Positions 236-24,642 of a stretch of 42,017 nucleotides of DNA are shown piece by piece. The translations under genes and the position numbers were made by a program. This DNA is from a virus. The notes beneath the pieces are model-generated. The model saw only the letters and a program-made list of their open reading frames with translations. It had not been told where the DNA came from and made no database searches. How positions within the stretch are numbered: position 1 is the first letter of the stretch; the number at the start of each line of letters is the position of its first letter. The stretch spans positions 1-42,017 of IMG/VR virus record IMGVR_UViG_3300045988_006872; one strand, given 5' to 3'.

Positions 236-879
236 TTAACTTCGAAAATCTCGACAAGTTCACATTCCCCGGCGTTGGAAAGTACGACATTCCGCAGATC
301 GAGCCGGTCAAGGCATACCCACAAGGTGAGTTTATCCCCGTGAATTACCATTACACTGCGAAAGACACGAAAAGCAAGATCGTGCATTTCTTCGTGGACG
401 ATTATCAATTCATTCGGTATTGGAACACACCTGACAAGTACATTCCGCAACTGTCGCAGTTTGCGGCGGTGTGCGCACCGGACTTCTCCACCTACACGGA
501 TATGCCGATGGCGATGCAGATATACAATCATTACCGCAAGCACTGGTTGGCGGCGTATTGGCAAATGCACGGCATGACGGTTTATCCAACGATCTCCTGG
601 AGCGACGAGAATAGTTATGATTGGTGCTTTGACGGCGAGCCTATCGGCGGCGTGGTGGCTGTTTCCTCGGTAGGCACACAGCAAAACAAAGAAAGCAAGC
701 GCCTGTTTCTGCGCGGCTATGAGGAAATGATGAAACGGCTTTCACCGGAATGGGTGATATTCTACGGGAAAGTGCCGGAGGAATGCGACTGGAATGTAAT
801 TCGAGTAAAGCCGCACTATGATGAGATTGTGAAACGGAGGAAAGCAAATGAAATATCCGTTTCGGCCGGAAATACTTGA
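220..879 (+). CDS. DUF4417-like protein
   Basis: 219-aa ORF. Motifs 'HFFVDDYQFIRYWNTPDKY' and 'CAPDFSTYTDMP' resemble DUF4417 as I remember it. Overlaps both neighbours, so translation is probably coupled. Confidence 0.65.
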   Translation: MASGMINFENLDKFTFPGVGKYDIPQIEPVKAYPQGEFIPVNYHYTAKDTKSKIVHFFVDDYQFIRYWNTPDKYIPQLSQFAAVCAPDFSTYTDMPMAMQIYNHYRKHWLAAYWQMHGMTVYPTISWSDENSYDWCFDGEPIGGVVAVSSVGTQQNKESKRLFLRGYEEMMKRLSPEWVIFYGKVPEECDWNVIRVKPHYDEIVKRRKANEISVSAGNT

Positions 880-2365
880 TGCCCTTCCCGAAGAACTTGC
901 GGAACTATTCCGCGGGCTGGAAGATACGCTTCTCAATGAGATTTGTAGTCGTCTTGCACTGAAAGATCAGCTGAACGAAGTGACGGTTCAGGCAATCCGG
1001 TCGCTTCGGTCGCACGGCATTGACACAAAGGATATCGAAAAGGCGATTCGAAAGACCGCTGGGATCAGCGAAAAGAAACTGAGCGATCTATTTGACGATG
1101 TGATAGCCAGAAATCAAAAGTATTACACTGAGGTTATCGACCTTGCAGGGCTGACACAGCCTGAAACGCTGGTGAGCGTAGAAGACACGTGGGCGGTTTA
1201 CGAACAAACTCGGCAAACGTTGCGAAATATCACGCAGTCTATGGGCTTTCTGGTAAACAATGGGCGGACGAGGCTCCCGCCTGCGCGTGCATATCAGTGG
1301 GCGTTGGATTCTGCTGTTATGCAGATTCAGAGCGGGGCGATCAGCTACAATCAGGCGATAAAGTCTTCGGTGCAACAGCTTGCAGGTGGGCTGAAAGTCG
1401 TGAACTACGAAAGCGGACACGCTGACAACATCGATGTTGCTGTTCGGAGAGCTGTCATGACCGGCGTGAATCAGATCTGCGACCAGTACACAAACCAAAG
1501 CGCAGAGTACCTTGATACGAGATACTTTGAAGTGTCTGCGCACGCTGGGGCGCGTGACAAGCCGGGTGCTTCGCCGTGGTCAAGCCACAAAGACTGGCAA
1601 GGGAAAGTCTATTACCAGAGTGAAAGCGGCGAACCTGACCCGCTGGGGCTTTACGATGACCTTGTGGAAACGACCGGTTACGGATATGTTGACGGTCTGA
1701 CAGGCGCAAACTGTAGGCATCACAAATACCCGTTTGTTCAGGGAGTTTCGGAACGAACTTACACAGACGAACAGCTCAAGCATATCGACGATGGTCTTGG
1801 CTGCACGTTTGACGGAAAGACTTACACGGCCTATGAAGCGACGCAGATGCAACGCCGAATAGAACGGCAAATCCGCGCGCAGAAGAAGCTTAGAAACGCA
1901 TACAAAGAAGCTGGGCTTTCCGAAGACGCGACCGCCGCAAACATAAAGCTTCGGCGGCTGAACGCAGAATATAGCAGGTTCAGCAAGGCCGCAGGGCTGC
2001 CGGAACAGCGTGAGCGGACAAAGGCCCTATACACAGATGCAAAATCCGAGGCTGCGGTCAGTGCGGCGAAAGCAGCAAAACCAATCACGAGGCTGCAAGA
2101 AACGCTGGATGTGAAAGCAGGGATTGTGAATGGCGTTGTCCCGAAAGGGTCAGAAATTGGGTCTATTCGAGAAATAGCCGGTGGAGGGTCCGGGAAGCAG
2201 CTAAAGGTCGCGAGCTTCCTTTCTGAAAACTACGGCGGGGAACCGTTGCAATGGCGGAAAATTGGCGGTATAATACAAACGGACAATTTCCAGTATGATG
2301 TTCACTGGTTTGAATGCAACGAGAAACACTTCGAAGAAAAGCTGAAAGGGGTGAAGAAGAAATGA
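848..2365 (+). CDS. Phage minor capsid / head morphogenesis protein (SPP1 gp7-like, 'minor capsid protein 2' type) with an extra C-terminal ~110 aa
   Basis: 505 aa with GGAGGA RBS. Motifs 'AVRRAVMTGVNQ' and 'LTGANCRHH', plus a helical 'MQRRIERQIRAQKK' region typical of the family. Lies downstream of the portal. Confidence 0.8.
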   Translation: MKYPFRPEILDALPEELAELFRGLEDTLLNEICSRLALKDQLNEVTVQAIRSLRSHGIDTKDIEKAIRKTAGISEKKLSDLFDDVIARNQKYYTEVIDLAGLTQPETLVSVEDTWAVYEQTRQTLRNITQSMGFLVNNGRTRLPPARAYQWALDSAVMQIQSGAISYNQAIKSSVQQLAGGLKVVNYESGHADNIDVAVRRAVMTGVNQICDQYTNQSAEYLDTRYFEVSAHAGARDKPGASPWSSHKDWQGKVYYQSESGEPDPLGLYDDLVETTGYGYVDGLTGANCRHHKYPFVQGVSERTYTDEQLKHIDDGLGCTFDGKTYTAYEATQMQRRIERQIRAQKKLRNAYKEAGLSEDATAANIKLRRLNAEYSRFSKAAGLPEQRERTKALYTDAKSEAAVSAAKAAKPITRLQETLDVKAGIVNGVVPKGSEIGSIREIAGGGSGKQLKVASFLSENYGGEPLQWRKIGGIIQTDNFQYDVHWFECNEKHFEEKLKGVKKK

Positions 2366-2610
2366 AGGTGAGATATAAAGGAACGACGTTCGGCGGCGGG
2401 GTTCTCGGGCTGACGGATGGGAAAACCTATGAATGCGTGGGGGTCGAATATGATTTGCTCCGCATCATCGATGATGAGGGGGAGGATTACCTTTATTCCG
2501 CTTCGGCCCCTGCACCGCTCAATGGCAAAATCAAGCCGGGCAAATGGGAAGTGGTAGAAGATGACGATCAGGGAACGCTTTCAAGACTGATTTCTAAGGA
2601 GAATGCATGA
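2362..2610 (+). CDS. Hypothetical small acidic protein (82 aa)
   Basis: ATGA start/stop overlap with the minor capsid gene. Internal Met of track ORF 2314-2610. Confidence 0.6.
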   Translation: MKVRYKGTTFGGGVLGLTDGKTYECVGVEYDLLRIIDDEGEDYLYSASAPAPLNGKIKPGKWEVVEDDDQGTLSRLISKENA

Positions 2611-2735
2611 TTGACGAAAAACTGAAATCCGCTATTGAGCGGGCGCTTGCCGCCGGGTTCCGCGTCCAGCTAAAGCGCATGAAGGACGGAACAGTAAAGG
2701 CGCAGATCATCAAGGCGGAAGAACTGAAAAAATAA
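2607..2735 (+). CDS. Hypothetical 42-aa protein
   Basis: ATGA overlap with the preceding ORF. Translation MIDEKLKSAIERALAAGFRVQLKRMKDGTVKAQIIKAEELKK was read manually; it is below the ORF-track size cutoff. Confidence 0.4.
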   Translation: MIDEKLKSAIERALAAGFRVQLKRMKDGTVKAQIIKAEELKK

Positions 2736-2777
2736 TACAGATACCGCAGCGCAATTGAGCGCGCGGAATGGCACGAT

Positions 2778-2821
2778 GAGCCAACTGACTACGATTTGTT
2801 GTCGGTTGGCTCTTTTTATTT
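2778..2821 (+). terminator. Rho-independent terminator inside the head module
   Basis: 12-bp stem gagccaactgac/gtcggttggctc (one G-U pair), 11-nt loop, then TTTTTATTT. Confidence 0.75.
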
Positions 2822-2861
2822 ATCAACACTGTCCGACAGGACGTTAAACAAGGAGATTTTT

Positions 2862-3359
2862 ATGACAGAAGAAACCAACGTGCAGGGCACGGGAATCACT
2901 GCTCCTGAGCAGGAAAAGACGTTCACGCAGGCCGACGTTGACAAGATGATTCAGTCGAGGCTTGACCGAGAACGGAAGAAATACCCCAGCGAGGAAGAAA
3001 TCACCGCATACCGGACATGGAAAGACAGCCAGCAGACCGAACAGGAACGGCAGGCCAAGCAGGCGAAGGACCTTGCGGACAGCAAAGCTGCTTTGACTGC
3101 ATCGCAGGCAGAGGTCGAGCAGCTGCGGCGCGACAAGTATGTGTTGAGCAAGGGCTTGACCGGCGAGGATGCCGAGTTTATCGCGTTCAAGGCGATGAAG
3201 ATGGTCAACGACAAGACCACGTTTGAACAGGCTGTCGACGAGCTTACAGCGAATCGCAAGAAGGCGACGTTCGACTGGACAGCACCGGCAGGCGGTGGAA
3301 CCAAAGAAACAAACATGAACAGCACGATGAACGCCCTGATTCGGGGCGCTCTGAAATAA
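2862..3359 (+). CDS. Scaffolding protein (DUF4355-like)
   Basis: AAGGAG RBS. Charged coiled-coil protein with 'FTQADVDKMIQSRLDRERKKY', immediately upstream of the major capsid gene. Confidence 0.8.
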   Translation: MTEETNVQGTGITAPEQEKTFTQADVDKMIQSRLDRERKKYPSEEEITAYRTWKDSQQTEQERQAKQAKDLADSKAALTASQAEVEQLRRDKYVLSKGLTGEDAEFIAFKAMKMVNDKTTFEQAVDELTANRKKATFDWTAPAGGGTKETNMNSTMNALIRGALK

Positions 3360-3374
3360 CGAAGGGAGAATCAT

Positions 3375-4592
3375 ATGCCGAATATTATTGACAGAAATGC
3401 ACTTTCCGGTCTTATTCCGGAGCCTGTAACCCGCGAGATCATGCAGGGCGCTATCGCGGAATCCGCAGTCCTGCGCATGGGTAAGCGACTGGCGAATATG
3501 TCCAGCAAGACGCAGACCATCAACGTCCTGGACGCGCTGCCCTCTGCGTACTTCGTCAACGGCGAAGCAACTGATACCGGAGCCGGTGAAGCTTTCAAGC
3601 AGACCACGAAGATGGCGTGGGACAAGAAGAAAATCTATGCCGAGGAAATCGCAGTTATTGTCCCCATCCCCGAAGCAGCACTGGATGACGCAGATTATGA
3701 CATCTGGGGCGAGGTTCGCCCGAGACTGACTGAGGCGTTCGGTAAGGTCATCGACGCGGCAATCCTCTTTGGCACCAGCAAGCCTAGCACTTGGCGCGAC
3801 GGCGTTGTTCCTTCGGCCATCGCTGCCGGTAACGGCGTACCCGTCGGCACAAGCGTCTTTGACGACATCATGGGCGAGAACGGCCTGATCGCGAAGGTCG
3901 AGCTTGACGGATTCAATCCGAACGGCGTTATGTCCGCTATCCAGATGCGCGGGAAGCTGCGTGGCCTCAAGGACACGACCGGCCAGCCCATCTTCAAGTC
4001 CGATATGCAGGGCGCGACCCGCTATGGCCTTGACGGCATGGATATGTACTTCCCGATGAATGGCGCGTTTGACCCGAATCAGGCACAGATGATCGTCGGC
4101 GATTGGAGCCAGCTGGTGTACGCCATTCGGCAGGATATGACCTTCAAGATCTTCACCGAGGGCGTGATTCAGGATCCGACCACCAAGGCCATTACCTACA
4201 ACCTGATGCAGAACGACATGGTTGCGCTCCGCGCTGTCATGCGTCTGGGCTGGGAAATCGCGAACCCGGTCAACGCCTACAACGTGGACAAGACCACTCC
4301 GTTCCCGTTCTCCGTCTACGGCAAGGCAGGCACGGTCTCGACCGTGACCGTTACCCCCTCGACCGCGACGGTCAGCAAGGGTGACAGCAAGGCGTTCTCC
4401 GCCTCTGTGACCGGTGAAGGTATCGTGAGCGGTGACGTCACGTGGAGCATCAACAGCACGAAGTCCAGCATCACGGACGACGGCATCCTGACTGTTGGTT
4501 CCAGCGAGACCGGCTCCAGCATCACGGTAACGGCGAAGTCCAAGCAGAACGAGAACAAAACCGGCACGGCAACTGTGACGGTCGGCTCGTAA
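3375..4592 (+). CDS. Major capsid protein (HK97 fold) with C-terminal Ig-like Big_2 domain
   Basis: 405 aa, in the position after the scaffold gene. The last ~85 aa, 'VTVTPSTATVSKGDSKAFSASVTGEG...VTWSINS...ITVTAKS', match the bacterial Ig-like group 2 pattern. Confidence 0.9.
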   Translation: MPNIIDRNALSGLIPEPVTREIMQGAIAESAVLRMGKRLANMSSKTQTINVLDALPSAYFVNGEATDTGAGEAFKQTTKMAWDKKKIYAEEIAVIVPIPEAALDDADYDIWGEVRPRLTEAFGKVIDAAILFGTSKPSTWRDGVVPSAIAAGNGVPVGTSVFDDIMGENGLIAKVELDGFNPNGVMSAIQMRGKLRGLKDTTGQPIFKSDMQGATRYGLDGMDMYFPMNGAFDPNQAQMIVGDWSQLVYAIRQDMTFKIFTEGVIQDPTTKAITYNLMQNDMVALRAVMRLGWEIANPVNAYNVDKTTPFPFSVYGKAGTVSTVTVTPSTATVSKGDSKAFSASVTGEGIVSGDVTWSINSTKSSITDDGILTVGSSETGSSITVTAKSKQNENKTGTATVTVGS

Positions 4593-4615
4593 GGATTGAA
4601 TAGGAGGCGGCACGA

Positions 4616-5056
4616 ATGACTTATTCGGATTATGAGTTTTACTCCGGCTGCTATCTCGGCACCGTAGGAGAGGAAGATTTTGAACGTTTGGTGATTCGTG
4701 CCAGCTCTTTCCTCGAGTATTACACACAAGACCGTGTGAAAAACTTTGCAGACTTCGACGCGGTGAAGATGTGCTGTTGTGCGCTGGTTGATCAATACAA
4801 GCTCATTGAAACGGCGCAGGAACTTGCTAGAAAGAACGTCGACGCCGGGCTTGCATCCGACGGTGCAGAAGTGCAGAGCGAGACCGTAGGCGGCTATTCA
4901 CGGACCTTGAGAAGCGGCGGGGATTCTTCACTTGCCGCGCTCAAAGCTGCGTCAGAAGCGAAACAGGCGCTTGCTGGTGTTGTTCGCGAATACCTCGCGC
5001 ATACCGGACTTCTCTACAGAGGGAGGTGCTTTTCATGTATGCCCCACACACCGTAA
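4616..5056 (+). CDS. Head-tail connector protein (gp6-like)
   Basis: 146 aa, GGAGG RBS, position right after the major capsid gene. The N-terminal 'YSDYEFY...EDFERL...AS..LEYYT' pattern is typical of phage gp6-like connectors. Confidence 0.65.
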   Translation: MTYSDYEFYSGCYLGTVGEEDFERLVIRASSFLEYYTQDRVKNFADFDAVKMCCCALVDQYKLIETAQELARKNVDAGLASDGAEVQSETVGGYSRTLRSGGDSSLAALKAASEAKQALAGVVREYLAHTGLLYRGRCFSCMPHTP

Positions 5057-5493
5057 CGATCTACAACGTTACGCAGGAAACTGACCCGGAGACGTTCAAG
5101 GATGTGCGGAAATGCTACATCACGGTCATGCGGGGCGTCATGCTGCAAGCGTCTAAGGCGGCGAACGTCCGCGCCAGCGGTCTTGAAAGCGCCGATGCGG
5201 TCAACCTGTACATTCCGTTCTCCGCGCCTGCTGTGGACGGCGTGACAGGAATGGAGAAGCGCTACGTCGGGCCGCAGGAATTTTGGCGTGCAACTGATAA
5301 AAGCAAAATCTGGACACTTTCTACAGACGGTAACGGCGGCACAACCTTCTTTGTGAAGGGCGAAGTAGTCGAGCAGGACAAGACGGAAGAACAGATCGAG
5401 ATGCTTTACGATGATGTGTACAAAGTGACAAAGGTGGACATGAAGGACTTCGGCAGTCCATCTATGCAGCACTGGCAGGTCGGAGGCTCGTAA
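5035..5493 (+). CDS. Head closure / head-tail adaptor protein (putative)
   Basis: GGAGG sits 8 nt upstream of ATG 5035. Size and position fit the connector series. Confidence 0.55.
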   Translation: MYAPHTVTIYNVTQETDPETFKDVRKCYITVMRGVMLQASKAANVRASGLESADAVNLYIPFSAPAVDGVTGMEKRYVGPQEFWRATDKSKIWTLSTDGNGGTTFFVKGEVVEQDKTEEQIEMLYDDVYKVTKVDMKDFGSPSMQHWQVGGS

Positions 5494-5903
5494 TGCTGAA
5501 ATTCAGCGTAAAGGCAGACGGATGTGACGCGCTGCAGGAAAAGCTCGCGCAGGCCTGCACCAAAGCAGAGCATATTGTTGCAACGCAGGTGCGGAAGGAC
5601 ACAAGCCCATATGTGCCGTTCTTGACTGGGTCTCTCGACGAGAGAACGCAGGTTGTGGGAAATGCTGTTGTCTACCCCGGCCCGTATGCGCGATTTTTGT
5701 ACTACGGGAAAGTCATGGTGGATCCGGAGACCGGGAGCACATACGCGCCGAAGGGCGGCACGAAAGTGCTAACCGACAAAAACCTTGTGTTTAACAAGTC
5801 CGGACACGCACAAGCACAGTCGCACTGGTTCGAGGCGTCCAAAGCCGAAAACCTTGATAAATGGATCCGTGTTGCGGATAAGGCGGTGAAAAATGGCCTC
5901 TGA
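5493..5903 (+). CDS. HK97 gp10-like / 'minor capsid protein' family tail-completion protein
   Basis: 136 aa. 'DTSPYVPFLTGSL' and 'YARFLYYG' resemble the Minor_capsid_1 / gp10 family. Start and stop overlap the neighbours. Confidence 0.6.
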   Translation: MLKFSVKADGCDALQEKLAQACTKAEHIVATQVRKDTSPYVPFLTGSLDERTQVVGNAVVYPGPYARFLYYGKVMVDPETGSTYAPKGGTKVLTDKNLVFNKSGHAQAQSHWFEASKAENLDKWIRVADKAVKNGL

Positions 5904-6348
5904 AAAGCAAAGAAAACTGGTATCCGCGGAGGAAGAGCAGGACATTTCCAGAAAAATGATGATTTGGGCAAACGCCTTTTCCGATGACGACATGCCAGCT
6001 GCAACGATTAACTATGAATTTCTCGCTGCGGATTCTGCAAGTATGGCGCTGTCCACTATTCAGGGCGCGTATATCACGCAGAAATACATCCTCGGCGGGC
6101 ATGAAGCGGAATACCAATTTAAGATCATCGCCCGCATTATTCCCGGAAACAGCAACGACAAGCGCCTGAAATGTGACGCCATGCTGAATCGTTTCGGGGA
6201 CTGGGCGATGCAAAACCACCCGGCTCTGGGCAACGGAATGCGCGTCAGGCGTGTGGAAGCGTCCAGCCGCGCGGCAATGTTCGCCCGGTACGAAGATGGA
6301 TCAGAAGACCATCAAATTCTTATGAAACTGACATATGAGGTGATTTAA
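5893..6348 (+). CDS. Tail terminator-like protein (putative)
   Basis: 151 aa; last gene before the major tail protein. Confidence 0.5.
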   Translation: MASEKQRKLVSAEEEQDISRKMMIWANAFSDDDMPAATINYEFLAADSASMALSTIQGAYITQKYILGGHEAEYQFKIIARIIPGNSNDKRLKCDAMLNRFGDWAMQNHPALGNGMRVRRVEASSRAAMFARYEDGSEDHQILMKLTYEVI

Positions 6349-6350
6349 TT

Positions 6351-6884
6351 ATGGCAGACATGACATTTAATACCACTGCTGGCCAGACCATTGACCGCGA
6401 ATTGCTGATCGCGTACCTGAATACCGGCGAGGCGTCTACGCCTGTCTGGTCTCCGTTCGGCAAGCGCGTCACGGATTCCAGCATGGAGTACGACTGGCAG
6501 GAAGATTCCAGCAAGGATATCCTCGGGACTACAAGAACCACCATGAAGAAGCCCATCATCACGCAGAGCTTTGACCCGTGCGAGCTGGACGCAGGAGACG
6601 CGGCGCTTGTCAAGCTGTGGAACCTGGCTGTCAAAGACCAGGACGCAGCAGCACTGGCGAATCAGGACGTTCTTATCGTCCATTTTTACGCAGGCACGGC
6701 CAAGACGGCTGTTTTTGCGGAGCGCTACGACGGAACAATGGTCAAGCCCGCGAGCCTCGGCGGCGAGGGGGGCGGATTTGTCGGCATGCCGTTCGACGTG
6801 ACGCTCGGCGGCACGCGCACGACTGGCACGGCTGCGATCGGCAGCAACGGCGCAGTCACGTTCACGGCGGATTCTGCGGCGTAA
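6351..6884 (+). CDS. Major tail protein (TP901-1/phi13-like)
   Basis: 177 aa. 'LIAYLNTGEASTPVWSPFGKRVTDSSMEYD' fits the family pattern. Precedes the chaperone genes and the tape measure. Confidence 0.75.
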   Translation: MADMTFNTTAGQTIDRELLIAYLNTGEASTPVWSPFGKRVTDSSMEYDWQEDSSKDILGTTRTTMKKPIITQSFDPCELDAGDAALVKLWNLAVKDQDAAALANQDVLIVHFYAGTAKTAVFAERYDGTMVKPASLGGEGGGFVGMPFDVTLGGTRTTGTAAIGSNGAVTFTADSAA

Positions 6885-7889: not shown

Positions 7890-10172
7890 ATGGCGGATGG
7901 GAAAATCGTTGTGCAGGCGGAAGTTGATGCAAAAAAAGCACAACGGGAGCTTGACAAACTTACGGCAAGAATCGACAAGCTGGAAACCGACCTGAAAAAG
8001 AGCAGCGGAGAGCAAAGCGGGATCAAGGCGCAGCTTGACGCGGCAAAGGAATCCGCAAAACAGGCAGAAACTGCGTTGAAATCGTTGCGCGCTGAATCTG
8101 AACGGCTGCGGCAGGTCACATCCGGCGAGGTGTCTGCATCGCCTGATGCGTATATTTCTGCATACAGTCGGCAATCCGAAGTTGCTGCACAGATCAAGGA
8201 ACAGGAAGCGCTTCTGAAAGAGCAAGACAAGATCGTTGAGAGCTTGGACAGCAAGTACGCAAAAATTACGGACAAGGTAATGGAGCAGACCTCCGCGCTG
8301 GATGCGGCGAAGACACGCGCAGGAGAGCTGACGCGAGAGATCACAAACGCAAGCGGCGCGTCTGAACGAATGGAGCTTGCCGCAAAAAATGTTTCCGACA
8401 GCAGGAACACGTTCAGCAGGCGTGTTTCCGGGCTTTTTAAGCGTGTCCTTGTATTCTCTCTGATTACCAGAGCTCTGCAAAGCCTGCGGACATGGCTCGG
8501 AAAAACAATCATGCAGAACGATGCGGCGCGTGCAGCGGTTGCGCGGCTTAAGGCTGCGTTTTTGACGCTGGCCCAGCCGATTCTTCAAGTCGTGATCCCC
8601 GTTTTTGTGAAGCTTGTGAATATCCTCACGCAAGTTGTTACTGCGATTGCAAAGTTCTTCGGCATGCTGTCCGGTAAAAGTTGGGGCGCGCAAGTCGCAG
8701 CGGCCAAAGGGCTGAATGCGGAAAAAGAAGCAATCGAGGGGGTAGGCTCCGCAGCCGAAGACGCCAGCAAGAGCATGGCAAGCTTCGATGAGATCAACCA
8801 GATTACCAGCAATCAGGCATCTGGAGGCGGAGGCGGCGCAGGCGGGGCGGCGTCTACGGATATCGCGCCGGATTTCGCAAATCTCGACATGGCAGAGGAC
8901 AAGCTCCACGACATTCTCGGCTTGGTAGGAGCGATTGCAGCAGGGCTTCTGGCATGGAAAATTGCGAGCTTGTTCACGAACGACCTGAGCAAGATTTGGG
9001 GTATCGCCCTTGCTGTTGCCGGGGCGTTTGCGCTTGTATACTTCTGGCTGGATGCTTGGAATAACGGGATTGATTTACAAAACTTCCTCGGGATGCTGGC
9101 AGGGCTTGCCGCGCTTGCAGTTGGACTTGCAATCGCCTTCGGACCAATCGCAGCAGGAATTGCGCTCGTTGTAGGCGGTCTTGCCATGCTGGTTGTTGGT
9201 ATCAAGGACGTTATTGAAAATGGCTTCAATTTAGTAAATACGCTTACGATCATCGCAGGGCTGCTTGCCGCCGGTATCGGCATTTCGATTCTGACGGGTA
9301 GCTGGATCCCACTCCTGATTGCGGGATTTGTTGCCGCTCTGGTTGCACTTGTTTCCTTTACCGGACATGGCGAAGAACTAATCGAAGGCCTGAAAAATAT
9401 CATAGACGGATTCGGTAAATTTTTCAAGGGTGTGTTTACGGGTGACTTGAAGCTTGCCGCAGAAGGCGCGAAACAAATTTGGGAAGGGCTTAAGCAGACG
9501 TGGAATGCCATCATAAACTCCATCAAATATGCATGGGATATGTTCATTACATGGTTACAATCAAAAAGCCCCATGCTCGCGGCGATTTTCCAGACATACG
9601 GAAACTTTATATCCGGCCTATTCAACAGTATAAAGCAGTGGCTAAGCGGAATCATCGAGTTTATCAGCGGCGTTTTTACCGGAGACTGGGCAAAGGCGTG
9701 GGAAGGCGTAAAGGATATATTTAAGGGAATCTGGAATGGAATCATTACCGCTGTTGAATATGCGATAAACTTTATCATCAACGGTATAAACCTCCTAATC
9801 TCCGCGCTGAATACCATTCATTTCGAGGTTCCTGATTGGGTTCCTCTAATTGGCGGTAGTTCTTTCGGAATTAGCATTCCCCTAGTGAGCAACGTTGCGC
9901 TTCCTCGTCTCGCGCAGGGCGCAGTCATCCCCCCAAACCGCGAATTTCTCGCCGTTCTCGGCGACCAGAAGAGCGGGACGAATATTGAGACGCCGCTGGC
10001 AACGATGGTGCAGGCCTTTAAGCAGGCCATGAACGATACCGGAGGCATGGGCGGCAGGCAGATCACGGTTGTTATGCAGCTCGACCACAGAGAACTTGGC
10101 CGCGCGGTGTATAACCTTAACAACGAGGAAACACAGCGCGTCGGCGTGAAGCTTGCGGGGGTGAAGGCATGA
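7890..10172 (+). CDS. Tape measure protein
   Basis: 760 aa: N-terminal coiled coil, central block of Gly/Ala-rich TM-like helices, C-terminal 'LAVLGDQKSGTNIETP' motif. Canonical position. Confidence 0.9.
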   Translation: MADGKIVVQAEVDAKKAQRELDKLTARIDKLETDLKKSSGEQSGIKAQLDAAKESAKQAETALKSLRAESERLRQVTSGEVSASPDAYISAYSRQSEVAAQIKEQEALLKEQDKIVESLDSKYAKITDKVMEQTSALDAAKTRAGELTREITNASGASERMELAAKNVSDSRNTFSRRVSGLFKRVLVFSLITRALQSLRTWLGKTIMQNDAARAAVARLKAAFLTLAQPILQVVIPVFVKLVNILTQVVTAIAKFFGMLSGKSWGAQVAAAKGLNAEKEAIEGVGSAAEDASKSMASFDEINQITSNQASGGGGGAGGAASTDIAPDFANLDMAEDKLHDILGLVGAIAAGLLAWKIASLFTNDLSKIWGIALAVAGAFALVYFWLDAWNNGIDLQNFLGMLAGLAALAVGLAIAFGPIAAGIALVVGGLAMLVVGIKDVIENGFNLVNTLTIIAGLLAAGIGISILTGSWIPLLIAGFVAALVALVSFTGHGEELIEGLKNIIDGFGKFFKGVFTGDLKLAAEGAKQIWEGLKQTWNAIINSIKYAWDMFITWLQSKSPMLAAIFQTYGNFISGLFNSIKQWLSGIIEFISGVFTGDWAKAWEGVKDIFKGIWNGIITAVEYAINFIINGINLLISALNTIHFEVPDWVPLIGGSSFGISIPLVSNVALPRLAQGAVIPPNREFLAVLGDQKSGTNIETPLATMVQAFKQAMNDTGGMGGRQITVVMQLDHRELGRAVYNLNNEETQRVGVKLAGVKA

Positions 10173-18828: not shown

Positions 18829-19056
18829 ATGGAAAACATCAAGAAGCGGCTTGGCAATCTGCTGAGCGTCAAATCCCTCGTCACGCTCGGCCTGACCATT
18901 ATCTTCGCCGTCCTCGCCCTGCGCGGCGATATCACCGGAAAGGACTTTCTAACGATCTTCCTGACGGTCATCACGTTCTATTTCGGCACGCAGAGCCAGA
19001 AAGCGCAGGACGCCATCGATGCGGCAGGCAAACCGCAGGAGGACGCGCAGAAATGA
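18829..19056 (+). CDS. Holin (two TM helices)
   Basis: 75 aa. TMs 'LVTLGLTIIFAVLAL' and 'FLTIFLTVITFYFG', charged C-terminus, ATGA overlap with the endolysin. Confidence 0.6.
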   Translation: MENIKKRLGNLLSVKSLVTLGLTIIFAVLALRGDITGKDFLTIFLTVITFYFGTQSQKAQDAIDAAGKPQEDAQK

Positions 19057-19751
19057 GCATCATGAAAGCCTCCGAGCTCGTCAGGCGGCACATCGACGTC
19101 GCGAAGAATTACAAGACCGTTTATATGTGGGGCTGCTTTGGCTCGCCGGTCACGGATGGGATCATCGCAGAGAAGGCCAAACAATACCCGGACTGGTACG
19201 ACGCCGCAAAACAGGCCAGATTCCGCGGGCTGATCGGGAAGGGCTACTTTGGCTTTGACTGCGTGAATCTCACAAAGGGGATCCTGTGGGGATGGAACGG
19301 CAACAAAAACGCCTACCACGGCGGCGCCCGATACGCCGGAAACGCCGTCCCGGACGTCTCTGCCGACGGCATGATCGCCAAATGCAAGGACGTATCCGCA
19401 TCCGGCTGGGACAAGCTCGTCCCGGGCGAAGGCCTGTGGATGCCCGGCCACTGGGGGCTGTACATCGGAGACGGCTTGGCCGTTGAGTGTACGCCCATCT
19501 GGGATAATGGCGTGCAGATCACCGGCGTCGGCAACATCGGCGTCAAGGGCGGCTACAACAGCCGTGTATGGCAGAAGCACGGCAGGCTCCCGTGGGTGGA
19601 CTACGACACGGAAACCGTTGACAAGGCCGTCGAGGACGCTAAGAAGACCATCAAGGCAAAGGCCGGACTTGCGGACAACACGATCAAATATCTCGCCGAC
19701 TACAAGTACGGCGATGATCTCCTAAAAAAACTGGCTGCGGCTATGAAGTAA
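19053..19751 (+). CDS. Endolysin, NlpC/P60-like cysteine peptidase
   Basis: 232 aa. Candidate catalytic Cys in 'GFDCVNLTKGILWG' and His in 'GHWGLYIGDG'. Follows the holin. Confidence 0.7.
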   Translation: MSIMKASELVRRHIDVAKNYKTVYMWGCFGSPVTDGIIAEKAKQYPDWYDAAKQARFRGLIGKGYFGFDCVNLTKGILWGWNGNKNAYHGGARYAGNAVPDVSADGMIAKCKDVSASGWDKLVPGEGLWMPGHWGLYIGDGLAVECTPIWDNGVQITGVGNIGVKGGYNSRVWQKHGRLPWVDYDTETVDKAVEDAKKTIKAKAGLADNTIKYLADYKYGDDLLKKLAAAMK

Positions 19752-19763
19752 GGAGGCGGCGCG

Positions 19764-20012
19764 ATGGCACCGCATGCACGAGTTAATCTGCCGCCGGAGC
19801 TTGGCAGGCTGACGCGGAAGGACATGGAGGCTGTGATCTATCAGGCCAATCTTGGACGCGAGAACTCGCAGATCGCGCAGCTTTACTTCGTAGACAAGCT
19901 CCCGCAAGTGGACGTTGCGACAGAATTGTATCTTGGCCGCGCCACCGTGCAGCGCCGCCTGCCGGAGATCATGGCGCGGATGAAGGCTGCGTCCGGCAGT
20001 CTTCCAAACTGA
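19764..20012 (+). CDS. Sigma-70 region-4-like HTH protein (82 aa, region 4 only)
   Basis: GGAGG RBS. 'IAQLYFVDKLPQVDVATELYLGRATVQRRLPEIMARM' resembles sigma region 4 / ArpU-RinA-type HTH. Confidence 0.6.
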   Translation: MAPHARVNLPPELGRLTRKDMEAVIYQANLGRENSQIAQLYFVDKLPQVDVATELYLGRATVQRRLPEIMARMKAASGSLPN

Positions 20013-20098
20013 GCGGAAATGATGCACAAGTGATACGAAGCTGAGGCACATCAAAACGCAAAAAAGCCCATACTGGACACATCAAAGGAGTGTTCGGT

Positions 20099-20485
20099 AT
20101 GGGCTTTTCTTATTTCAATCCAAATCCCGCCGGGCGGCAGGTCGGGGACTGCACTGTTCGAGCAATCGCAAAGGCGACGGGGAAAAGCTGGGATGAAATA
20201 TATATCGGGCTGTGCTTGCAAGGTCTGATCTTGGGCGATCTTCCGAGTGCAAACAGTGTATGGGGTGCATACCTCCGGCAGCATGGTTTTACCCGGAACG
20301 TGATACCGGACACCTGCCCGGATTGCTACACGGTCGACAGGTTTGCCGATGAGCACCCGCGCGGGACGTATATTCTCGCCCTCTCTGGGCATGTAGTGTG
20401 CGTGCAGGATGGGACGATCTATGACAGCTGGAATAGCGAGGACGAAATCCCGCTTTATTACTGGGTAAAAGAAACGGAGGAATGA
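20099..20485 (+). CDS. Standalone papain-like (C39-like) Cys-His protein, function unknown
   Basis: AAAGGAG sits 8 nt upstream of ATG 20099. 'RQVGDCTVRAIAKATGKSW' supplies Gln and Cys; 'SGHVVCVQDGTIYDSW' supplies His and Asp. Confidence 0.5.
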   Translation: MGFSYFNPNPAGRQVGDCTVRAIAKATGKSWDEIYIGLCLQGLILGDLPSANSVWGAYLRQHGFTRNVIPDTCPDCYTVDRFADEHPRGTYILALSGHVVCVQDGTIYDSWNSEDEIPLYYWVKETEE

Positions 20486-20487
20486 AC

Positions 20488-21138
20488 ATGGCATATCCCT
20501 ATTTCAATCCCTATTATCAGCAGCCGATGCCGGATAACCTCATGCAGATGCGGCAGATGCAGCAGCCACAGATGCAGCCCATGCAGCAGCCTATGTCGCA
20601 GCCAGTGCAACAGAACCCCATCGCGCAGAGCGGCGTGCAGTGGGTAAGCGGCGAGCAGGAGGCAAGGGGTTATCTCATCGCGCCAAACTCCGCTGTGGCG
20701 CTGTGGGATTCTACCGCGCCGACTGTGTATCTCAAGCAGGCGGATGCAAGTGGAAAGCCGACGCTCAAGATTTATGACCTCGTAGAACGCACAGAAACGG
20801 CCCCTAACGCGCCACAAAAGCCGGGCGTGGAATTTGTCACCCGCGAGGAGTTCGACCGTCTAGCGGCGCTTGTGGGCGAAATAAAGGGTAAAAAGAAGCG
20901 CAAGGTAGAGAGGAGGACGAGGACGATGACTAATCCGTTCATGGCCGCGCTGGGCGGCGGGCAGATGCCGATGGGCAATTTTGCACAGATGGTGCAGCAG
21001 TTCAACCAGTTCAAAGCAAATTTCAAAGGCGACCCCAAAGCCGAGGTCGAAAAGCTCTTGCAGAGTGGTAGGCTAAACCAGCAGCAGCTCAATCAGCTAC
21101 AGCAGATGGCGAAGCAGTTTCAAAGCCTGATGCAGTAA
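20488..21138 (+). CDS. Q/P/M-rich protein with central beta-rich domain and C-terminal Q-rich helix (unknown function)
   Basis: GGAGG sits 7 nt upstream of ATG 20488. N-terminal 'QMRQMQQPQMQPMQQPMSQPVQQ', basic linker 'KGKKKRKVERRTRT', C-terminal 'QQQLNQLQQMAKQFQSLMQ'. Confidence 0.6.
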   Translation: MAYPYFNPYYQQPMPDNLMQMRQMQQPQMQPMQQPMSQPVQQNPIAQSGVQWVSGEQEARGYLIAPNSAVALWDSTAPTVYLKQADASGKPTLKIYDLVERTETAPNAPQKPGVEFVTREEFDRLAALVGEIKGKKKRKVERRTRTMTNPFMAALGGGQMPMGNFAQMVQQFNQFKANFKGDPKAEVEKLLQSGRLNQQQLNQLQQMAKQFQSLMQ

Positions 21139-21204
21139 TCATCAACATAAATCAACATCGTGGCCACGATTTGATGAATAAAAATTTTTCAAAGGAGTGA
21201 TACT

Positions 21205-21981
21205 ATGTCTCTTTCTGACGGCGGCGTTCAGGCCACTATGCCTGTTGCGCCAACCGGCATGATGAACAGCGGCTTTGGCGGCTTCGGTGGCGATGGCGCG
21301 TGGTGGATCATCATTCTTTTCCTGTTTGTTTTCTGCGGCTGGGGAAACAACGGCTGGGGAAACAACGGCAACAGCGGTGCTGCTGACAATTACGTCCTTG
21401 CAAGCGATTTTGCCACTCTTCAGCGCCAGATCGACAGCGCAGCATCGACGATCGAACGTAAAAGCGACATTACGCAGCAGGGCATCTGCGATGGCTTCTA
21501 CTCCATGAACACTACGCTGCTGAACGGCTTTGCGGGCGTCAATCAGAACATGAACAGCGGTTTCCAGAATGCCGAGCTTTCCCGCTGCAACCAGCAGGCA
21601 GCTCTCATGCAGCAGCTCAACGCCATGCAGATGCAGGCCGCAGATTGCTGCTGCGAAAACCGTGCAGCTATCGCCCAGGTGCGCTACGACATGGCGACGC
21701 AGGCGTGCGACACGCGCAACACCGTGCAGAACGCCACGCGCGACATCATTGACGCGAACAACCAGAACAGCCGCGCCATCCTCGACTTCCTGACGCAAAG
21801 CAAGCTGTCCGACCTCCAGACCGAGAATCAGAATCTGAAGCTGGCGGCATCTCAGGCCGCGCAGAACAACTATCTGATCTCGCAGCTGCGTCCGTGCCCT
21901 TCGCCTGCCTACATTACTTGTAACCCGTGGGCAGGCAGCGGTTACGGCGGCTGTGGCTGCAATCAGGGTTGTGGCTGCTGA
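21205..21981 (+). CDS. Membrane protein: YjcZ-like Gly-rich TM N-terminus, N/Q-rich helical body, Cys-cluster C-terminus (unknown function)
   Basis: AAAGGAG RBS. 'GFGGFGGDGAWWIIILFLFVFCGWGNNGWGNNG'; 13 Cys including 'CCC' and the terminal 'GGCGCNQGCGC'. Followed by a terminator. Confidence 0.65.
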   Translation: MSLSDGGVQATMPVAPTGMMNSGFGGFGGDGAWWIIILFLFVFCGWGNNGWGNNGNSGAADNYVLASDFATLQRQIDSAASTIERKSDITQQGICDGFYSMNTTLLNGFAGVNQNMNSGFQNAELSRCNQQAALMQQLNAMQMQAADCCCENRAAIAQVRYDMATQACDTRNTVQNATRDIIDANNQNSRAILDFLTQSKLSDLQTENQNLKLAASQAAQNNYLISQLRPCPSPAYITCNPWAGSGYGGCGCNQGCGC

Positions 21982-22050
21982 CAACTGCATAGCATAGCTT
22001 TTTCGTGACCTCACGAAAATGGTCGGCCCCGTGCCGATACTAACAACAAC

Positions 22051-22084
22051 GCGGCGGGGCAATAGCCCTGCCGCTGTATTTTTA
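22051..22084 (+). terminator. Rho-independent terminator
   Basis: 10-bp GC-rich stem gcggcggggc/gccctgccgc (one G-U pair), loop AATA, then TGTATTTTTA. Confidence 0.7.
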
Positions 22085-22100
22085 TGAAAGGAATGATTTT

Positions 22101-22523
22101 ATGGCTGAATTTACATCATCCGGGATTCAAACTGTCACCGCTGGGCAGAACGTCCCTCTGATCTCCACGGCGGCTTGTGGAAAGCCGTGCATCGTACATC
22201 GCGAAGGAAGCGGGCTTGTTACGCTGCGTGGTCTGACGCAGCAATGCAAGGCGAAGTTCCGCGTATCCTTTGGTGCTAATATCGCCGTCCCTACAGGCGG
22301 AACAGTAGGTGCCATTACCGCTGCGCTTGCAATCAACGGCGAACCTCTGAGCAGCGCCACAGCGACCGTAACCCCTGCGGCTGTTGAGAACTATTTCAAC
22401 ATCTTCGTTTCCGCATTCGTGGAAGTCCCGCGCGGCTGCTGCCTGACAGTAGCGGCGAAGAACACCAGCGTGCAGGCGGTAAGTTTCGCAAATAGCAATA
22501 TGATCGTCGAGCGCGTATCGTGA
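22101..22523 (+). CDS. BclA C-terminal-domain / C1q-TNF-like jelly-roll protein (putative), Cys-rich
   Basis: 140 aa. The pattern 'ANIAVPTGGTVGAITAALAINGEPLSSATATVTP...NTSVQAVSFANSNMIVERV' resembles exosporium BclA-CTD-type domains. 5 Cys. Confidence 0.45.
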   Translation: MAEFTSSGIQTVTAGQNVPLISTAACGKPCIVHREGSGLVTLRGLTQQCKAKFRVSFGANIAVPTGGTVGAITAALAINGEPLSSATATVTPAAVENYFNIFVSAFVEVPRGCCLTVAAKNTSVQAVSFANSNMIVERVS

Positions 22524-22537
22524 AAGGAGAATGCAAT

Positions 22538-22909
22538 ATGTACGATTTGAGAAACCTGCGTGAAATGCTCTGCAAAGAGCTTGACGAAATCGCCGACAAG
22601 CGCGAAATGTCTGCGGGCGATCTGGACGCGATCCAGAAGCTGACGAGCTCCATCAAAAACGCCTATAAGATTGAAATGCTTGAGGACGGCGGATACTCCC
22701 GCGACGGCGAATGGGAATCGGATATGCGCGGCACATATGGACGCGGAAGTTCATACCGTGGGCGCCGCCGCGACGCAATGGGCCGCTACAGCCGCACCGA
22801 CGCCCGCGAGCACATGCATGCGCAGCTGGAGGATATGATGCGCGACGCGGACGACGATAAAACCCGCGAAGCGATCCGCCGCTGCATGGAGCAGATCGAG
22901 CGGGCATAA
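22538..22909 (+). CDS. Small helical protein with R/G/Y/S-rich central segment (unknown function)
   Basis: AAAGGAG RBS. 'GGYSRDGEWESDMRGTYGRGSSYRGRRRDAMGRYSR' is flanked by helices. Confidence 0.6.
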   Translation: MYDLRNLREMLCKELDEIADKREMSAGDLDAIQKLTSSIKNAYKIEMLEDGGYSRDGEWESDMRGTYGRGSSYRGRRRDAMGRYSRTDAREHMHAQLEDMMRDADDDKTREAIRRCMEQIERA

Positions 22910-22918
22910 GGAGGAACT

Positions 22919-23251
22919 ATGCTGGATGAACGTGAAATCCGAAAGGAGATAGCCAGACTGGAATACGAAGAATCCAGCTATCGGAACTATGCGAAGCTTG
23001 CCGACCTCTATGCCATCCGCAGGGAGATGCATGGCGGCAGTGAGATTGTGGGTGCTTACTCTGCTGCTGCACCTCCTGAACCATCCGAACGGTACACCGT
23101 TGGCGAATATGGGGATAGTGATTTTTTGCTTGCCGTATCAGGCAAGGATCCTACTAGGGTATGGCCGATCATCGACGAGCTTATGGATACGCTGTCGATG
23201 GTGAACAAGCGCGTGTATGATTCTGTTATGCGAAAGATCGACATGATCTAA
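22919..23251 (+). CDS. Small hypothetical protein (110 aa)
   Basis: AAGGAGG RBS; last gene before attP. Confidence 0.6.
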   Translation: MLDEREIRKEIARLEYEESSYRNYAKLADLYAIRREMHGGSEIVGAYSAAAPPEPSERYTVGEYGDSDFLLAVSGKDPTRVWPIIDELMDTLSMVNKRVYDSVMRKIDMI

Positions 23252-23532: not shown

Positions 23533-24642
23533 TCAGCCTTTCTCGATTTTGTTAATCGCGGCAACCATGCCCTCTGTGTTCGGGTGAACATACCTCTGCG
23601 TTGTTGTGATTTTCGCGTGGCGCATGATCTCCTTGATTGTAAACGGATCGATGTTCTTCATTGCAAGCGCGGTCGCGGTCGTGTGCCGACAGGCGTACGG
23701 CGGGAGGCGCTTCACTCCAGCCTGCTCCAAGCATTCGTAATATCTTGCATAAAAGTTGTCTTCGTTCATGCAGCATATCTTACCGACCTTCGATTTGCTT
23801 TCATCGCAGAGCTGCTGGAAAACAGGAGCGACAAAATCAGGAAACACCATAGGCGTTTCCTTCCGTTTTTTTGTCTTGAGGCCGCTATTTACGATCTCAT
23901 TTTTGTCAAAGTCGATCATACTCTTATCCAGCTTTCGGAGCTCTCCCGGCATCATGCCCGTGTATATCATTGCGAGGATAAACCCAGCAAAATTGTTTTT
24001 CGGGTACACTTTCCAGATCTTTTTTACGTCGTCCTCCGAGAACGGCTCTGGCGATTTTTCCTCCAGCTTCGGAAGTTTGACGAATTTTGAAAGATTGACT
24101 GTTGTCTGCTTTTCAGCGATGGCAAGATTGAAGCAGTGTGACAGGACTGTTTTCATGTCTCTGCGTGTATAGTAAGTGCTGGCTTTCCGGTCGACCACAT
24201 CCTGAATCTGGCCGATCGTCAGTGCGTCAATCTCACAGTCCGCAATTTCTTCCAGACGTTCAAATGCTTTGTCTGCTGCGCCCTGCCGGTCGTGGGAGAG
24301 GGACAAATAATCGCCCTTTAAGTATGTTTTATAATATTCTCGCAAGGTAGGGCTCCGTTTTTCTTTCTGCGGCGGGTTCGCAGCGTATTGAAGTGCGGCC
24401 CGTTTTGTTGCGAAGCCGCCCTTTGTCTTCGTTTTCTGATGCAGTTTGTCGTTCTCATCGAGATATATTCCGACAGTCCACCGCGCCGTCCAGGTCTTGC
24501 CGCGTTGATAAGCGCTACCTTGCCCGTTCCCGCGAGACTTTGCGCGCGGCTTCTCTGTCTGTTTCTTTCCGCACCAGCAACAGTAGGGCGCGCCGTCTGG
24601 AATCCCTTTTTTACACTTGATGCACTCCATGTTTCCCTCCAC
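23533..24642 (-). CDS. int: Tyrosine integrase with N-terminal zinc-ribbon
   Basis: 369 aa. C-terminal 'ACRHTTATALAMKNI...IMRHAKITTTQRYVH' carries the R-H-R-Y catalytic pattern. N-terminal 'CIKCKKGIPDGAPYCCWCGKKQ'. Adjacent to attP. Confidence 0.95.
   Translation of the reverse strand: MEGNMECIKCKKGIPDGAPYCCWCGKKQTEKPRAKSRGNGQGSAYQRGKTWTARWTVGIYLDENDKLHQKTKTKGGFATKRAALQYAANPPQKEKRSPTLREYYKTYLKGDYLSLSHDRQGAADKAFERLEEIADCEIDALTIGQIQDVVDRKASTYYTRRDMKTVLSHCFNLAIAEKQTTVNLSKFVKLPKLEEKSPEPFSEDDVKKIWKVYPKNNFAGFILAMIYTGMMPGELRKLDKSMIDFDKNEIVNSGLKTKKRKETPMVFPDFVAPVFQQLCDESKSKVGKICCMNEDNFYARYYECLEQAGVKRLPPYACRHTTATALAMKNIDPFTIKEIMRHAKITTTQRYVHPNTEGMVAAINKIEKG

Follow-up and report, generated by a model that had tools for sequence, protein, structure and literature searches.

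The 42,017-nt stretch analysed here (the window: positions 1 to 42,017 of IMG/VR virus record IMGVR_UViG_3300045988_006872) carries a gene, designated T, whose 258-aa product combines a short hydrophobic segment, a long predicted helix and a cysteine-rich tail. T belongs to a large family of phage proteins and is part of a conserved gene cassette, where its most constant neighbour is the gene (D) for a protein with a TNF/C1q-like jelly-roll fold. The reading we prefer, and hold tentatively, makes T the anchor and stalk of a thiol-stapled two-protein fibre with D as its head; the fibre would be assembled in the cytoplasm during lytic growth.

The ATG of T lies 7 nt downstream of a ribosome-binding site (AGGAG, 21193–21197), and comparison with six relatives of 62–68% identity gave ratios of nonsynonymous to synonymous substitution rates (dN/dS) of 0.08–0.19, which indicates purifying selection. 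Since it is the plus-strand frame that is under selection, the antisense open reading frame (ORF) at 21142–22062 is a compositional artefact, as an earlier note made from the sequence had suspected, and the thousands of homologues of T point the same way. T is a direct member of PHROG 16490, a catalogued phage protein family without assigned function, residues 1–227 aligning to positions 1–224 of the 286 in the profile (E = 2.1e-45). A word-indexed search retrieved at least 7,984 clusters of homologues at 90% identity, all of those listed being named 'hypothetical', while an exhaustive search of representatives gave 1,797 clusters at 50% identity; one identical T sequence is present on 404 contigs. 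The annotated carriers are gut and rumen phages, six Clostridium perfringens phages, Butyrivibrio virus Ceridwen and five crAss-like phages (cr115_1, where the homologue is gp43, cr53_1, cr116_1, cr52_1 and cr125_1), for which the database label 'spike protein/glycoprotein' is unverified. Many carrier loci are labelled Clostridia, and the labels of metagenome-assembled genomes (MAGs), in which binning is unreliable, also include Negativicutes and Bacteroidota.

Across 91 diverse members the residues conserved in at least 90% of sequences are G28, W34, G45, G47, G52, C148, C150, S216, Q220, P232, P234, P241 and C250. The family traits are a Gly-rich N-terminus, a WWIIILFLF-type segment, a GWGxNG(W/F)G hinge, a CCC motif and, towards the C-terminus, an AASQxAQNxYLxxQLRPxPxPAY..NPY block and a terminal CxC cluster. 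The parts follow in the same order in gp43 of cr115_1 (Gly-rich N-terminus, WWWIWIILIFF anchor, CCC, IRPCPVPAYLTCNP, terminal GCGCGC), and the conserved anatomy, as read from the sequences, spans phages of Clostridia to crAss-like phages. The cr115_1 genes at 1586–6631 (locus L002), the T homologue included, contain in-frame TAG codons that need read-through, presumably as Gln, and are broken by standard translation.

No match to T was found in Pfam or NCBIfam at E ≤ 1, nor in PDB sequences or PADLOC, and when its partners were included in the Pfam, NCBIfam, PADLOC and PDB sequence searches, no characterised protein was matched. A Foldseek search with the T model was also without a match, as expected for a lone helix. 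These results agree with the earlier note, which could not match T to any characterised protein. A literature search returned nothing relevant on DUF7841, on virion proteomes of the carrier phages or on BclA-like phage fibres.

The structure of T was modelled as a monomer with AlphaFold2 (AF2) from 91 sequences. The model consists of a short helix (residues 34–43), a disordered hinge, a single unbroken helix (66–228) and a disordered tail. Within the family, the segment in front of the hydrophobic helix has a mean length of 30 aa, and its last 15 residues contain 1.4 Asp/Glu versus 0.38 Lys/Arg. Most members carry [ST][LP][AS]D[IV]AA[AV]TG here, the window copy being of an alternative TMPVAP type; this motif was considered as a hint of a cleavage site tied to the type of peptidase in the cassette, an idea that was discarded, as the same ADIAAxTG motif occurs with both types. 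The hydrophobic core is about 15 residues long family-wide, and both of its flanks are nearly devoid of Lys/Arg. A lipoprotein reading of FVFC-G was rejected, as this is no lipobox and residue 44 is not a conserved cysteine.

The anchor is followed by the GWGNN repeat. Its unit, GGCTGGGGAAACAAC, is found exactly twice in the window (21337–21351 and 21352–21366; chance expectation 0), and Tandem Repeats Finder reported a 15-bp unit at 21336–21369 with 2.3 copies and 100% matches, both in agreement with the exact tandem duplication described previously. Relatives of at least 75% identity have one, two or three copies, as expected for slippage. The body of T is rich in Asn and Gln (N 10.5%, Q 9.3%, G 10.5% and C 5.0% of the protein) and is helical in the model, as the earlier note had proposed. 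The pLDDT (predicted local distance difference test) of the long helix is 70–97, and exceeds 90 at residues 160–230. Its hydrophobicity has a period of 3.64 residues, and averaging the spectra of 99 relatives gives the same peak. A coiled coil with canonical heptads was tried and rejected, as no register stands out and the period is not 3.5. At 3.64, the hydrophobic stripe runs almost parallel to the helix axis, a pattern that, in the model, would suit either a straight hendecad-type helical bundle or an amphipathic helix lying on a surface. The cysteine landmarks reported before were all located: T has 13 (44, 95, 128, 148–150 within DCCCE, 168, 231, 239, 250, 252, 256 and 258), six of them within the final 28 residues, and the CCC motif is duplicated in some family members. 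The tail, in which a Pro-rich motif precedes the Cys cluster, is proposed as a candidate attachment site for D.

Gene neighbourhoods were compared in 84 loci, taken from phage records and species-representative genomes. Prophage cargo was one context that the earlier note had proposed to look for, but T does not stand by itself: it is one gene of a cassette of six to eight co-directional genes in the order sigma-region-4-like helix-turn-helix (HTH) gene, peptidase, B, C, T, D, E and F, and the order from peptidase to F is kept in most loci. Of 83 loci searched by tblastn, 55 have D after T, and clustering raises the number. The AF2 model of D is all-beta (pLDDT 88; predicted template modelling score, pTM, 0.82), and its best Foldseek matches in the PDB are the C-terminal domain (CTD) of F-BclA, BxpB, ExsF, BclA, EDA and 4-1BBL, with a probability of 1.00, E values of about 2e-6 and template modelling (TM) scores of 0.65–0.76. 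The modelled fold of D fits the ten-strand jelly roll of the TNF/C1q-like superfamily and can be superposed on BclA-CTD, BxpB and TNF ligands. Standalone viral homologues of D are present in BFVD on contigs labelled Sipho-, Podo- and Myoviridae, some of them named 'BclA protein', and one homologue has a precomputed, faint match to Pfam BclA_C. By analogy with BclA-CTD and BxpB/ExsF, D is expected to form a trimer.

The cysteines of T and D vary together. Nearly all T tails have two to six Cys and nearly all D proteins have a CC motif; where the T tail contains Cys, a D protein with CC is present in all but three loci. The converse is seen in five loci (L012, L025, L043, L091 and L093), which have Thr-rich, Cys-poor T tails and no D at all. 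The first three form one clade and the other two are separate lineages, giving at least three lineages. In L094 a T devoid of Cys precedes a BclA-like D that also has none, and in L096, where the T tail is Cys-free, the CC motif is missing from D. This co-variation supports contact between T and D. For the Pro-rich docking motif of T there is a precedent in ExsF, the trimer of which holds the Pro-kinked leader peptide of a fibre protein in its inter-subunit clefts; in the same work, Ena appendages and L-BclA were found to be covalently coupled via CC motifs (PMC12357932).

In the D-less loci, the Cys cluster of T is replaced by Thr/Ser-rich or poly-Thr tails (e.g., TSTTTTTTT), which, judged by composition, may be glycosylated substitutes for the head. 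Elsewhere, the position of D is filled by a gene designated c13 (L003:5379–5756 and eight others), which accompanies the DUF7841 form of E. It codes for a protein of about 130 aa with an N-terminal CxxxCxxC, a conserved IRTRTRYS motif and 6.4% Cys, and has no Pfam match. Homology of c13 with D (c3) was rejected (hhalign probability 0.8%).

Under the preferred reading, the short acidic N-terminal segment and the hydrophobic helix of about 15 residues would hold T in or on a membrane. A Gly/Asn/Trp hinge would come next, its length drifting through repeat slippage, and the helix of about 165 residues would then pack as a straight, hendecad-type bundle some 24 nm long. D would dock, and be stapled, to the conserved end of this helix, the Pro-rich motif (RPCPxPAYxxCNPY) and the CxC cluster at the C-terminus, the contact being fixed by cysteines of both proteins as disulfides or a shared metal-thiolate site. 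A dedicated peptidase, of either Cys or Zn type, would mature the assembly, and C, with its high Met content, might serve to hold the hydrophobic segment of T. This last suggestion is a thin one, drawn from composition and from analogy: proteins that bind transmembrane segments use Met-rich grooves. T is the only protein of the cassette with a hydrophobic segment and none of its partners has an export signal, so that all partners look cytoplasmic. Given this and the short acidic N-flank, T would probably be oriented N-out/C-in, with assembly on the cytoplasmic side. The conservation of the tail cysteines and their co-variation with D would fit a disulfide- or metal-stapled assembly. The proposal of a membrane-anchored, disulfide- or metal-linked assembly made in the earlier note is thus retained as regards the anchor and the cysteines, while the link it drew to YjcZ and sporulation is not.

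Several points weigh against such a fibre. The AF2 model of T is that of a monomer with a pTM of 0.36, its hydrophobic core is shorter than usual for a transmembrane segment, and the positive-inside rule gives no orientation (Lys/Arg 0.38 vs 0.47). By eye, the helix cysteines of this copy seemed to lie on the hydrophobic face in an 11-residue register, but this was rejected family-wide: of 529 helix cysteines, 29% are within 60 degrees of that face, against 33% by chance, and a core metal or disulfide ladder is therefore not indicated. The Cys co-variation is in part phylogenetically non-independent, the D position is taken in some loci by the unrelated, Cys-rich c13, and most hosts are strict anaerobes, which disfavours disulfides. 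The T–D contact, the oligomeric state and membrane insertion, together with the topology, timing and ultimate role of T, are what we infer; the purpose of a T–D fibre is not explained by any of the results.

In kind, T and D come closest to fibres that join a stalk to a TNF-like head, such as BclA/ExsF and TNF ligands. BclA or F-Anchor fibres are borne on BxpB/ExsF in the Bacillus exosporium, and D shares the jelly-roll fold of BclA-CTD, BxpB and ExsF. The Pro-rich motif and CxC of T and the CC of D parallel the Pro-kinked peptide and CC coupling of the exosporium and Ena systems, and assembly from cytoplasmic, signal-less proteins, as proposed for T and D, would be another likeness. Unlike exosporium fibres, however, the stalk of T is alpha-helical and not collagen, T has a hydrophobic anchor, its docking motif is C-terminal instead of an N-terminal leader, and T and D are encoded by phages, including those of non-sporulating hosts; there is no TIGR03720-type match and no sequence homology. 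As for BclA itself, T has no GXX repeats and matches no leader model, and the head fold resides in a separate protein. TNF-superfamily ligands (e.g., EDA-A1 and 4-1BBL), which are type II membrane proteins with a stalk and a trimeric head, have the same layout of anchor, stalk and TNF-like head as T plus D, but the latter are separate polypeptides of a prokaryotic virus without sequence relationship to the ligands, and their orientation is probably opposite.

The features of the window are collected in Table 1. From its ORF sizes and our own reading of them, the window appears to be a siphovirus-like phage or prophage.

Table 1. Coordinates of the T gene, its parts and other features of the window.
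Feature	Position	Strand	Basis and remarks
Terminase-sized ORF	848–2365		ORF size
Long, tape-measure-sized ORF	7890–10172		ORF size
Holin-like gene	18829–19056		PHROG match
Endolysin-like gene	19053–19751		Partial PHROG endolysin match, E = 1e-12
Small sigma-70 region-4-like HTH gene	19764–20012	+	Upstream cassette edge; Pfam Sigma70_r4, E = 0.004
Gene A, putative papain-like cysteine peptidase	20090–20485	+	131 aa; PHROG 3754
Genes B and C, fused here into a 218-aa ORF	20482–21138	+	PHROG 21718 (B); PHROG 22984 (C, from 20926)
Gene T, candidate anchor and stalk	21205–21981	+	258 aa; ATG start; phrog_16490, E = 2e-45
T, N-terminal segment, residues 1–31	21205–21297	+	Short, Gly-rich, net acidic; no Lys/Arg in this copy
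T, hydrophobic anchor AWWIIILFLFVFCGW, residues 32–46	21298–21342	+	AF2 helix 34–43
T, GWGNN-GWGNN, Gly/Asn/Trp hinge behind the anchor	21337–21366	+	Exact 15-bp tandem duplication, codon-aligned
T, continuous alpha-helix, residues 66–228	21400–21888	+	AF2; about 24 nm; N/Q/A/S/T-rich, amphipathic
T, CCC motif, C148–C150	21646–21654	+	All three invariant in A2; in nearly all loci
T, C-terminal tail, residues 229–258	21889–21978	+	RPCPSPAYITCNPW docking-type Pro motif, then GYGGCGCNQGCGC Cys cluster
GC-rich hairpin and T-run, between T and D	22051–22074	+	10 pairs, 9 of them GC, then TGTATTTTTA
Gene D, TNF/C1q-like jelly roll	22101–22523	+	140 aa; PHROG 20016; conserved CC (C113–C114)
Gene E, helical, Arg/Gly/Tyr-rich middle	22520–22909	+	PHROG 28802; variant form elsewhere is Pfam DUF7841
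Gene F	22919–23251	+	110 aa; same position elsewhere: HExxH mini-metallopeptidase
Integrase-sized ORF	23533–24642	opposite	Same place in L004–L007: Pfam Phage_integrase genes

The cassette begins with the small HTH gene, equivalents of which elsewhere match Sigma70_ECF (3e-6), Sigma70_r4 (0.003) and, in L091, Sigma70_r4_2. In many loci (e.g., L012:728–988, L071:2874–3089 and L091:945–1205) the protein is 70–140 aa long and comprises a sigma-70 region-4-type HTH alone, and on this evidence it is possibly a dedicated regulator of the cassette. Peptidase A, 126 aa in length as the usual cassette member, has C21, H101 and D112 invariant in 40 sequences and is labelled 'putative peptidase' in Bacillus phages; where it is found outside the cassette (Tsamsa-like Bacillus phages and Geobacillus GBK2), the surrounding genes were uninformative. 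The two peptidases of the cassette exclude each other. A alone is present in 28 loci, the HExxH protein alone in 15, both in none and neither in 13, some of the last being detection failures. The HExxH protein (L019:9575–9895 and 17 other c8 genes) has about 105 aa, a (C/A/I)HE(L/I)xH motif and weak similarity to SprT-like and M78 proteins. It stands at the last position exactly where A is absent, which looks like non-orthologous replacement.

The N-terminus of protein B is rich in Gln and Pro and its conserved core is beta-rich, and C is a small helical protein of about 70 aa, rich in Met, Gln and Asn (8.8–11.9% Met and 10–17% Gln in the family). Their fusion in the window is due to two extra nucleotides (AG) at 20907–20908 relative to the near-identical loci L004–L006, where the C-terminus of B is acidic (...KAEEDEDDE) and an overlapping ATG starts C; judging from this comparison, it would be either a frameshift mutation or a sequencing error. 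The T gene is nucleotide-identical in L004–L006 and differs by one synonymous change in L007, while the B–C region just upstream has about 56 differing positions in about 810 nt, pointing to mosaic recombination around T. The 66-bp gap between B–C and T contains a perfect 14-bp palindrome, ATCGTGGCCACGAT (21157–21170), about 35 bp upstream of the T start, which could be an operator or an RNA hairpin. The hairpin between T and D is terminator-like or attenuator-like in appearance.

HNH homing endonuclease genes were repeatedly found in or beside the cassette of unrelated phages, between C and T, between T and D, or after D (L088:7518–8312, L003:4020–4670, L008:9118–9780, L021:6762–7217 and 8616–9197, L077:8954–9793). 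Further cassette members were suspected in the c21 genes and in a gene for 264 aa behind D in Ceridwen, but these proved to be of this type, and Dulem virus 33 has an opposite-strand 'endonuclease' just upstream of T. In the crAss-like cassette, gp44 and gp45 were tried as D and B, and gp42 as the common c2 form of E, and all three were rejected by profile comparison. By BLAST, gp42 clusters with the DUF7841 form of E (c10), and it matches Pfam DUF7841.

The cassette lies mostly behind lysis genes, as in the window, in Ceridwen (behind the endolysin) and in loci with upstream Phage_holin_1 or NlpC/P60 genes. The endolysin-like gene of the window itself had no match in Pfam or NCBIfam, and one relative has a weak NlpC/P60 match. 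In cr115_1 the cassette is placed between lysis and structural genes, after a holin and a LysB/FtsL-like gene; in L096 it comes directly after the gene for the head-tail connector and before the endolysin; in CPD1 it is 3.4 kb past the lysis genes; and in the window and Dulem virus 33 it sits between lysis genes and integrase. In crAss-like phages integrases are generally absent, and none is annotated in the 9-kb stretch of cr115_1 that was examined. Ceridwen has been reported as apparently virulent (PMC7372960). Because the cassette is present in both, it is not specific to lysogeny and serves lytic growth.

An alternative places the T–D fibre on the virion, for instance as a whisker of the head or neck or as an additional fibre for receptor binding, or makes the pair an ejected protein that inserts into a membrane; until use, the hydrophobic segment would be buried in the particle or shielded by Met-rich C. 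TNF-like knobs are typical heads of phage fibres, and Foldseek matches include the phi812 spike knob, cyanophage fibre domains and 'fibritin neck whiskers'; like virion proteins, the partners have no export signals. The cassette is also in the late region, next to a connector gene in one locus (L096), homing endonucleases are often found in it, and maturation of fibres commonly calls on a peptidase and on a chaperone, of which the cassette has the first and possibly the second. However, siphovirus-like, crAss-like and other morphotypes all share the cassette, which is mostly outside the morphogenesis block, behind lysis genes or beside the integrase; a WWIIILFLFVF segment is unusual for a soluble fibre, and no virion proteome of a carrier was found in the literature. 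A virion fibre is, on balance, somewhat unlikely.

The proximity to lysis genes in very different genomes would instead suit a T that assists lysis or egress alongside the holin and endolysin encoded nearby, whether by partnering or regulating the holin, by acting as a connector in the manner of spanins or by remodelling membranes as an amphipathic helix. The 3.64-residue period also fits a helix on a lipid surface, and one family member has a weak Apolipoprotein match. T recalls i-spanins of the lambda Rz type in its N-terminal anchor, long helical domain, conserved Cys and frequent adjacency to holin and endolysin, but differs from them in being much longer, in its Cys/Pro-rich tail and in having no lipoprotein partner: C and D lack a hydrophobic signal, and inspection of the embedded plus-strand ORFs at 21275–21508 and 21569–21793 found neither a signal peptide nor a lipobox. 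Nor did T match spanins in PHROG, Pfam or the PDB, and its carriers include phages of the monoderms Butyrivibrio fibrisolvens and C. perfringens, which have no outer membrane to fuse, whereas spanins belong to diderm hosts. Holins are about 60–150 aa long with a charged C-terminus, and act as the sole lesion gene; T has 258 aa and a polar, uncharged, Cys-rich C-terminus, and separate holins are already present (18829–19056 in the window, Phage_holin_1 upstream in relatives). The distance from the lysis genes in CPD1 is a further difficulty, and B, C, D, E and the peptidase would be left unexplained. An accessory role in lysis is accordingly unlikely. The earlier note had named homology to a known lysis, spanin or tail protein as grounds for abandoning its proposal, and no such homologue was found.

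The place between lysis genes and integrase, in the window and in Dulem virus 33, is also the classic position of a moron, and T might then be a surface protein made by the prophage for lysogenic conversion or superinfection exclusion, lying N-in/C-out across the wall and exposing its tail, alone or together with D, on the lysogen. The layout resembles that of type-II membrane proteins such as TNF ligands, the cassette has its own small sigma-like regulator, and the Thr-rich tails of some variants look like glycosylation sites. This is hard to reconcile with the presence of the cassette in crAss-like phages and in Ceridwen, which seems to be virulent, with partners, D included, that all lack signal peptides, with an acidic N-flank that does not favour N-in, and with a set of six to eight genes, which is many for exclusion. 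There were no defence-system matches, the seven cassette proteins giving none better than E = 0.02 in PADLOC. We regard a lysogen surface protein as quite improbable.

The resemblance to YjcZ noted earlier, a Gly-rich run followed by a very hydrophobic helix, is compositional. YjcZ-like proteins have tens of residues, so that T is five times too long, neither T nor its 91 relatives matched YjcZ (models at E ≤ 0.01 for the relatives), and T lies in a late or accessory region of phage genomes and not in a sporulation locus. That T is a sporulation or spore-surface protein, whose cassette modifies host spores by hijacking an exosporium-type assembly, is very improbable: D does resemble exosporium BclA and BxpB/ExsF, the Cys-rich, Gly/Tyr-rich and Arg/Gly/Tyr-rich low-complexity proteins and the processing peptidase do recall coat and exosporium assembly, and many carriers are Clostridia, but no exosporium-leader model was matched, and the cassette occurs in phages of non-sporulating Butyrivibrio such as Ceridwen, in crAss-like phages and, with the caveat of unreliable binning, in MAGs labelled Negativicutes and Bacteroidota. 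For the families of spanins, holins, YjcZ and BclA alike, T fails at least one defining feature; it is neither a spanin, nor a holin, nor a sporulation protein.

Returning to T as anchor and stalk with D as head, a broader and more doubtful extension is that the whole cassette is an undescribed phage assembly system, which would line the host membrane from within with a lattice, or with thiol-stapled fibres resembling those of exosporia or appendages. It would cover sporulating and non-sporulating gut bacteria, and phages of Clostridia as well as crAss-like phages. At lysis, these fibres or this lattice might serve to coat or tether progeny, vesicles or pieces of membrane, and T could resemble a viral 'tetherin', or a pilin that is stored in the membrane before assembly.

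While T was already catalogued in PHROG, the families of T, B, C, D, E and F are all without a described function, and none of them was found in the literature. What sets T and D apart from the known stalk-and-head fibres is the combination of a helical, non-collagen stalk, a hydrophobic anchor, a head and stalk encoded by two genes, and a phage origin. The T family counts among the proteins without assigned function that are common in phages of gut and rumen, and it travels with a fixed set of equally uncharacterised partners across morphotypes and apparently across host phyla, so that solving its function would annotate six to eight genes at once in thousands of phage genomes. Cultured carriers exist in Butyrivibrio virus Ceridwen and several C. 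perfringens phages, which makes the question directly testable. If the model of a stalk with a TNF-like head is true, building blocks of spore exosporium and appendages would also be used by phages of non-sporulating anaerobes, and the fibre would be a new case of thiol- or metal-stapled assembly in an anoxic habitat.

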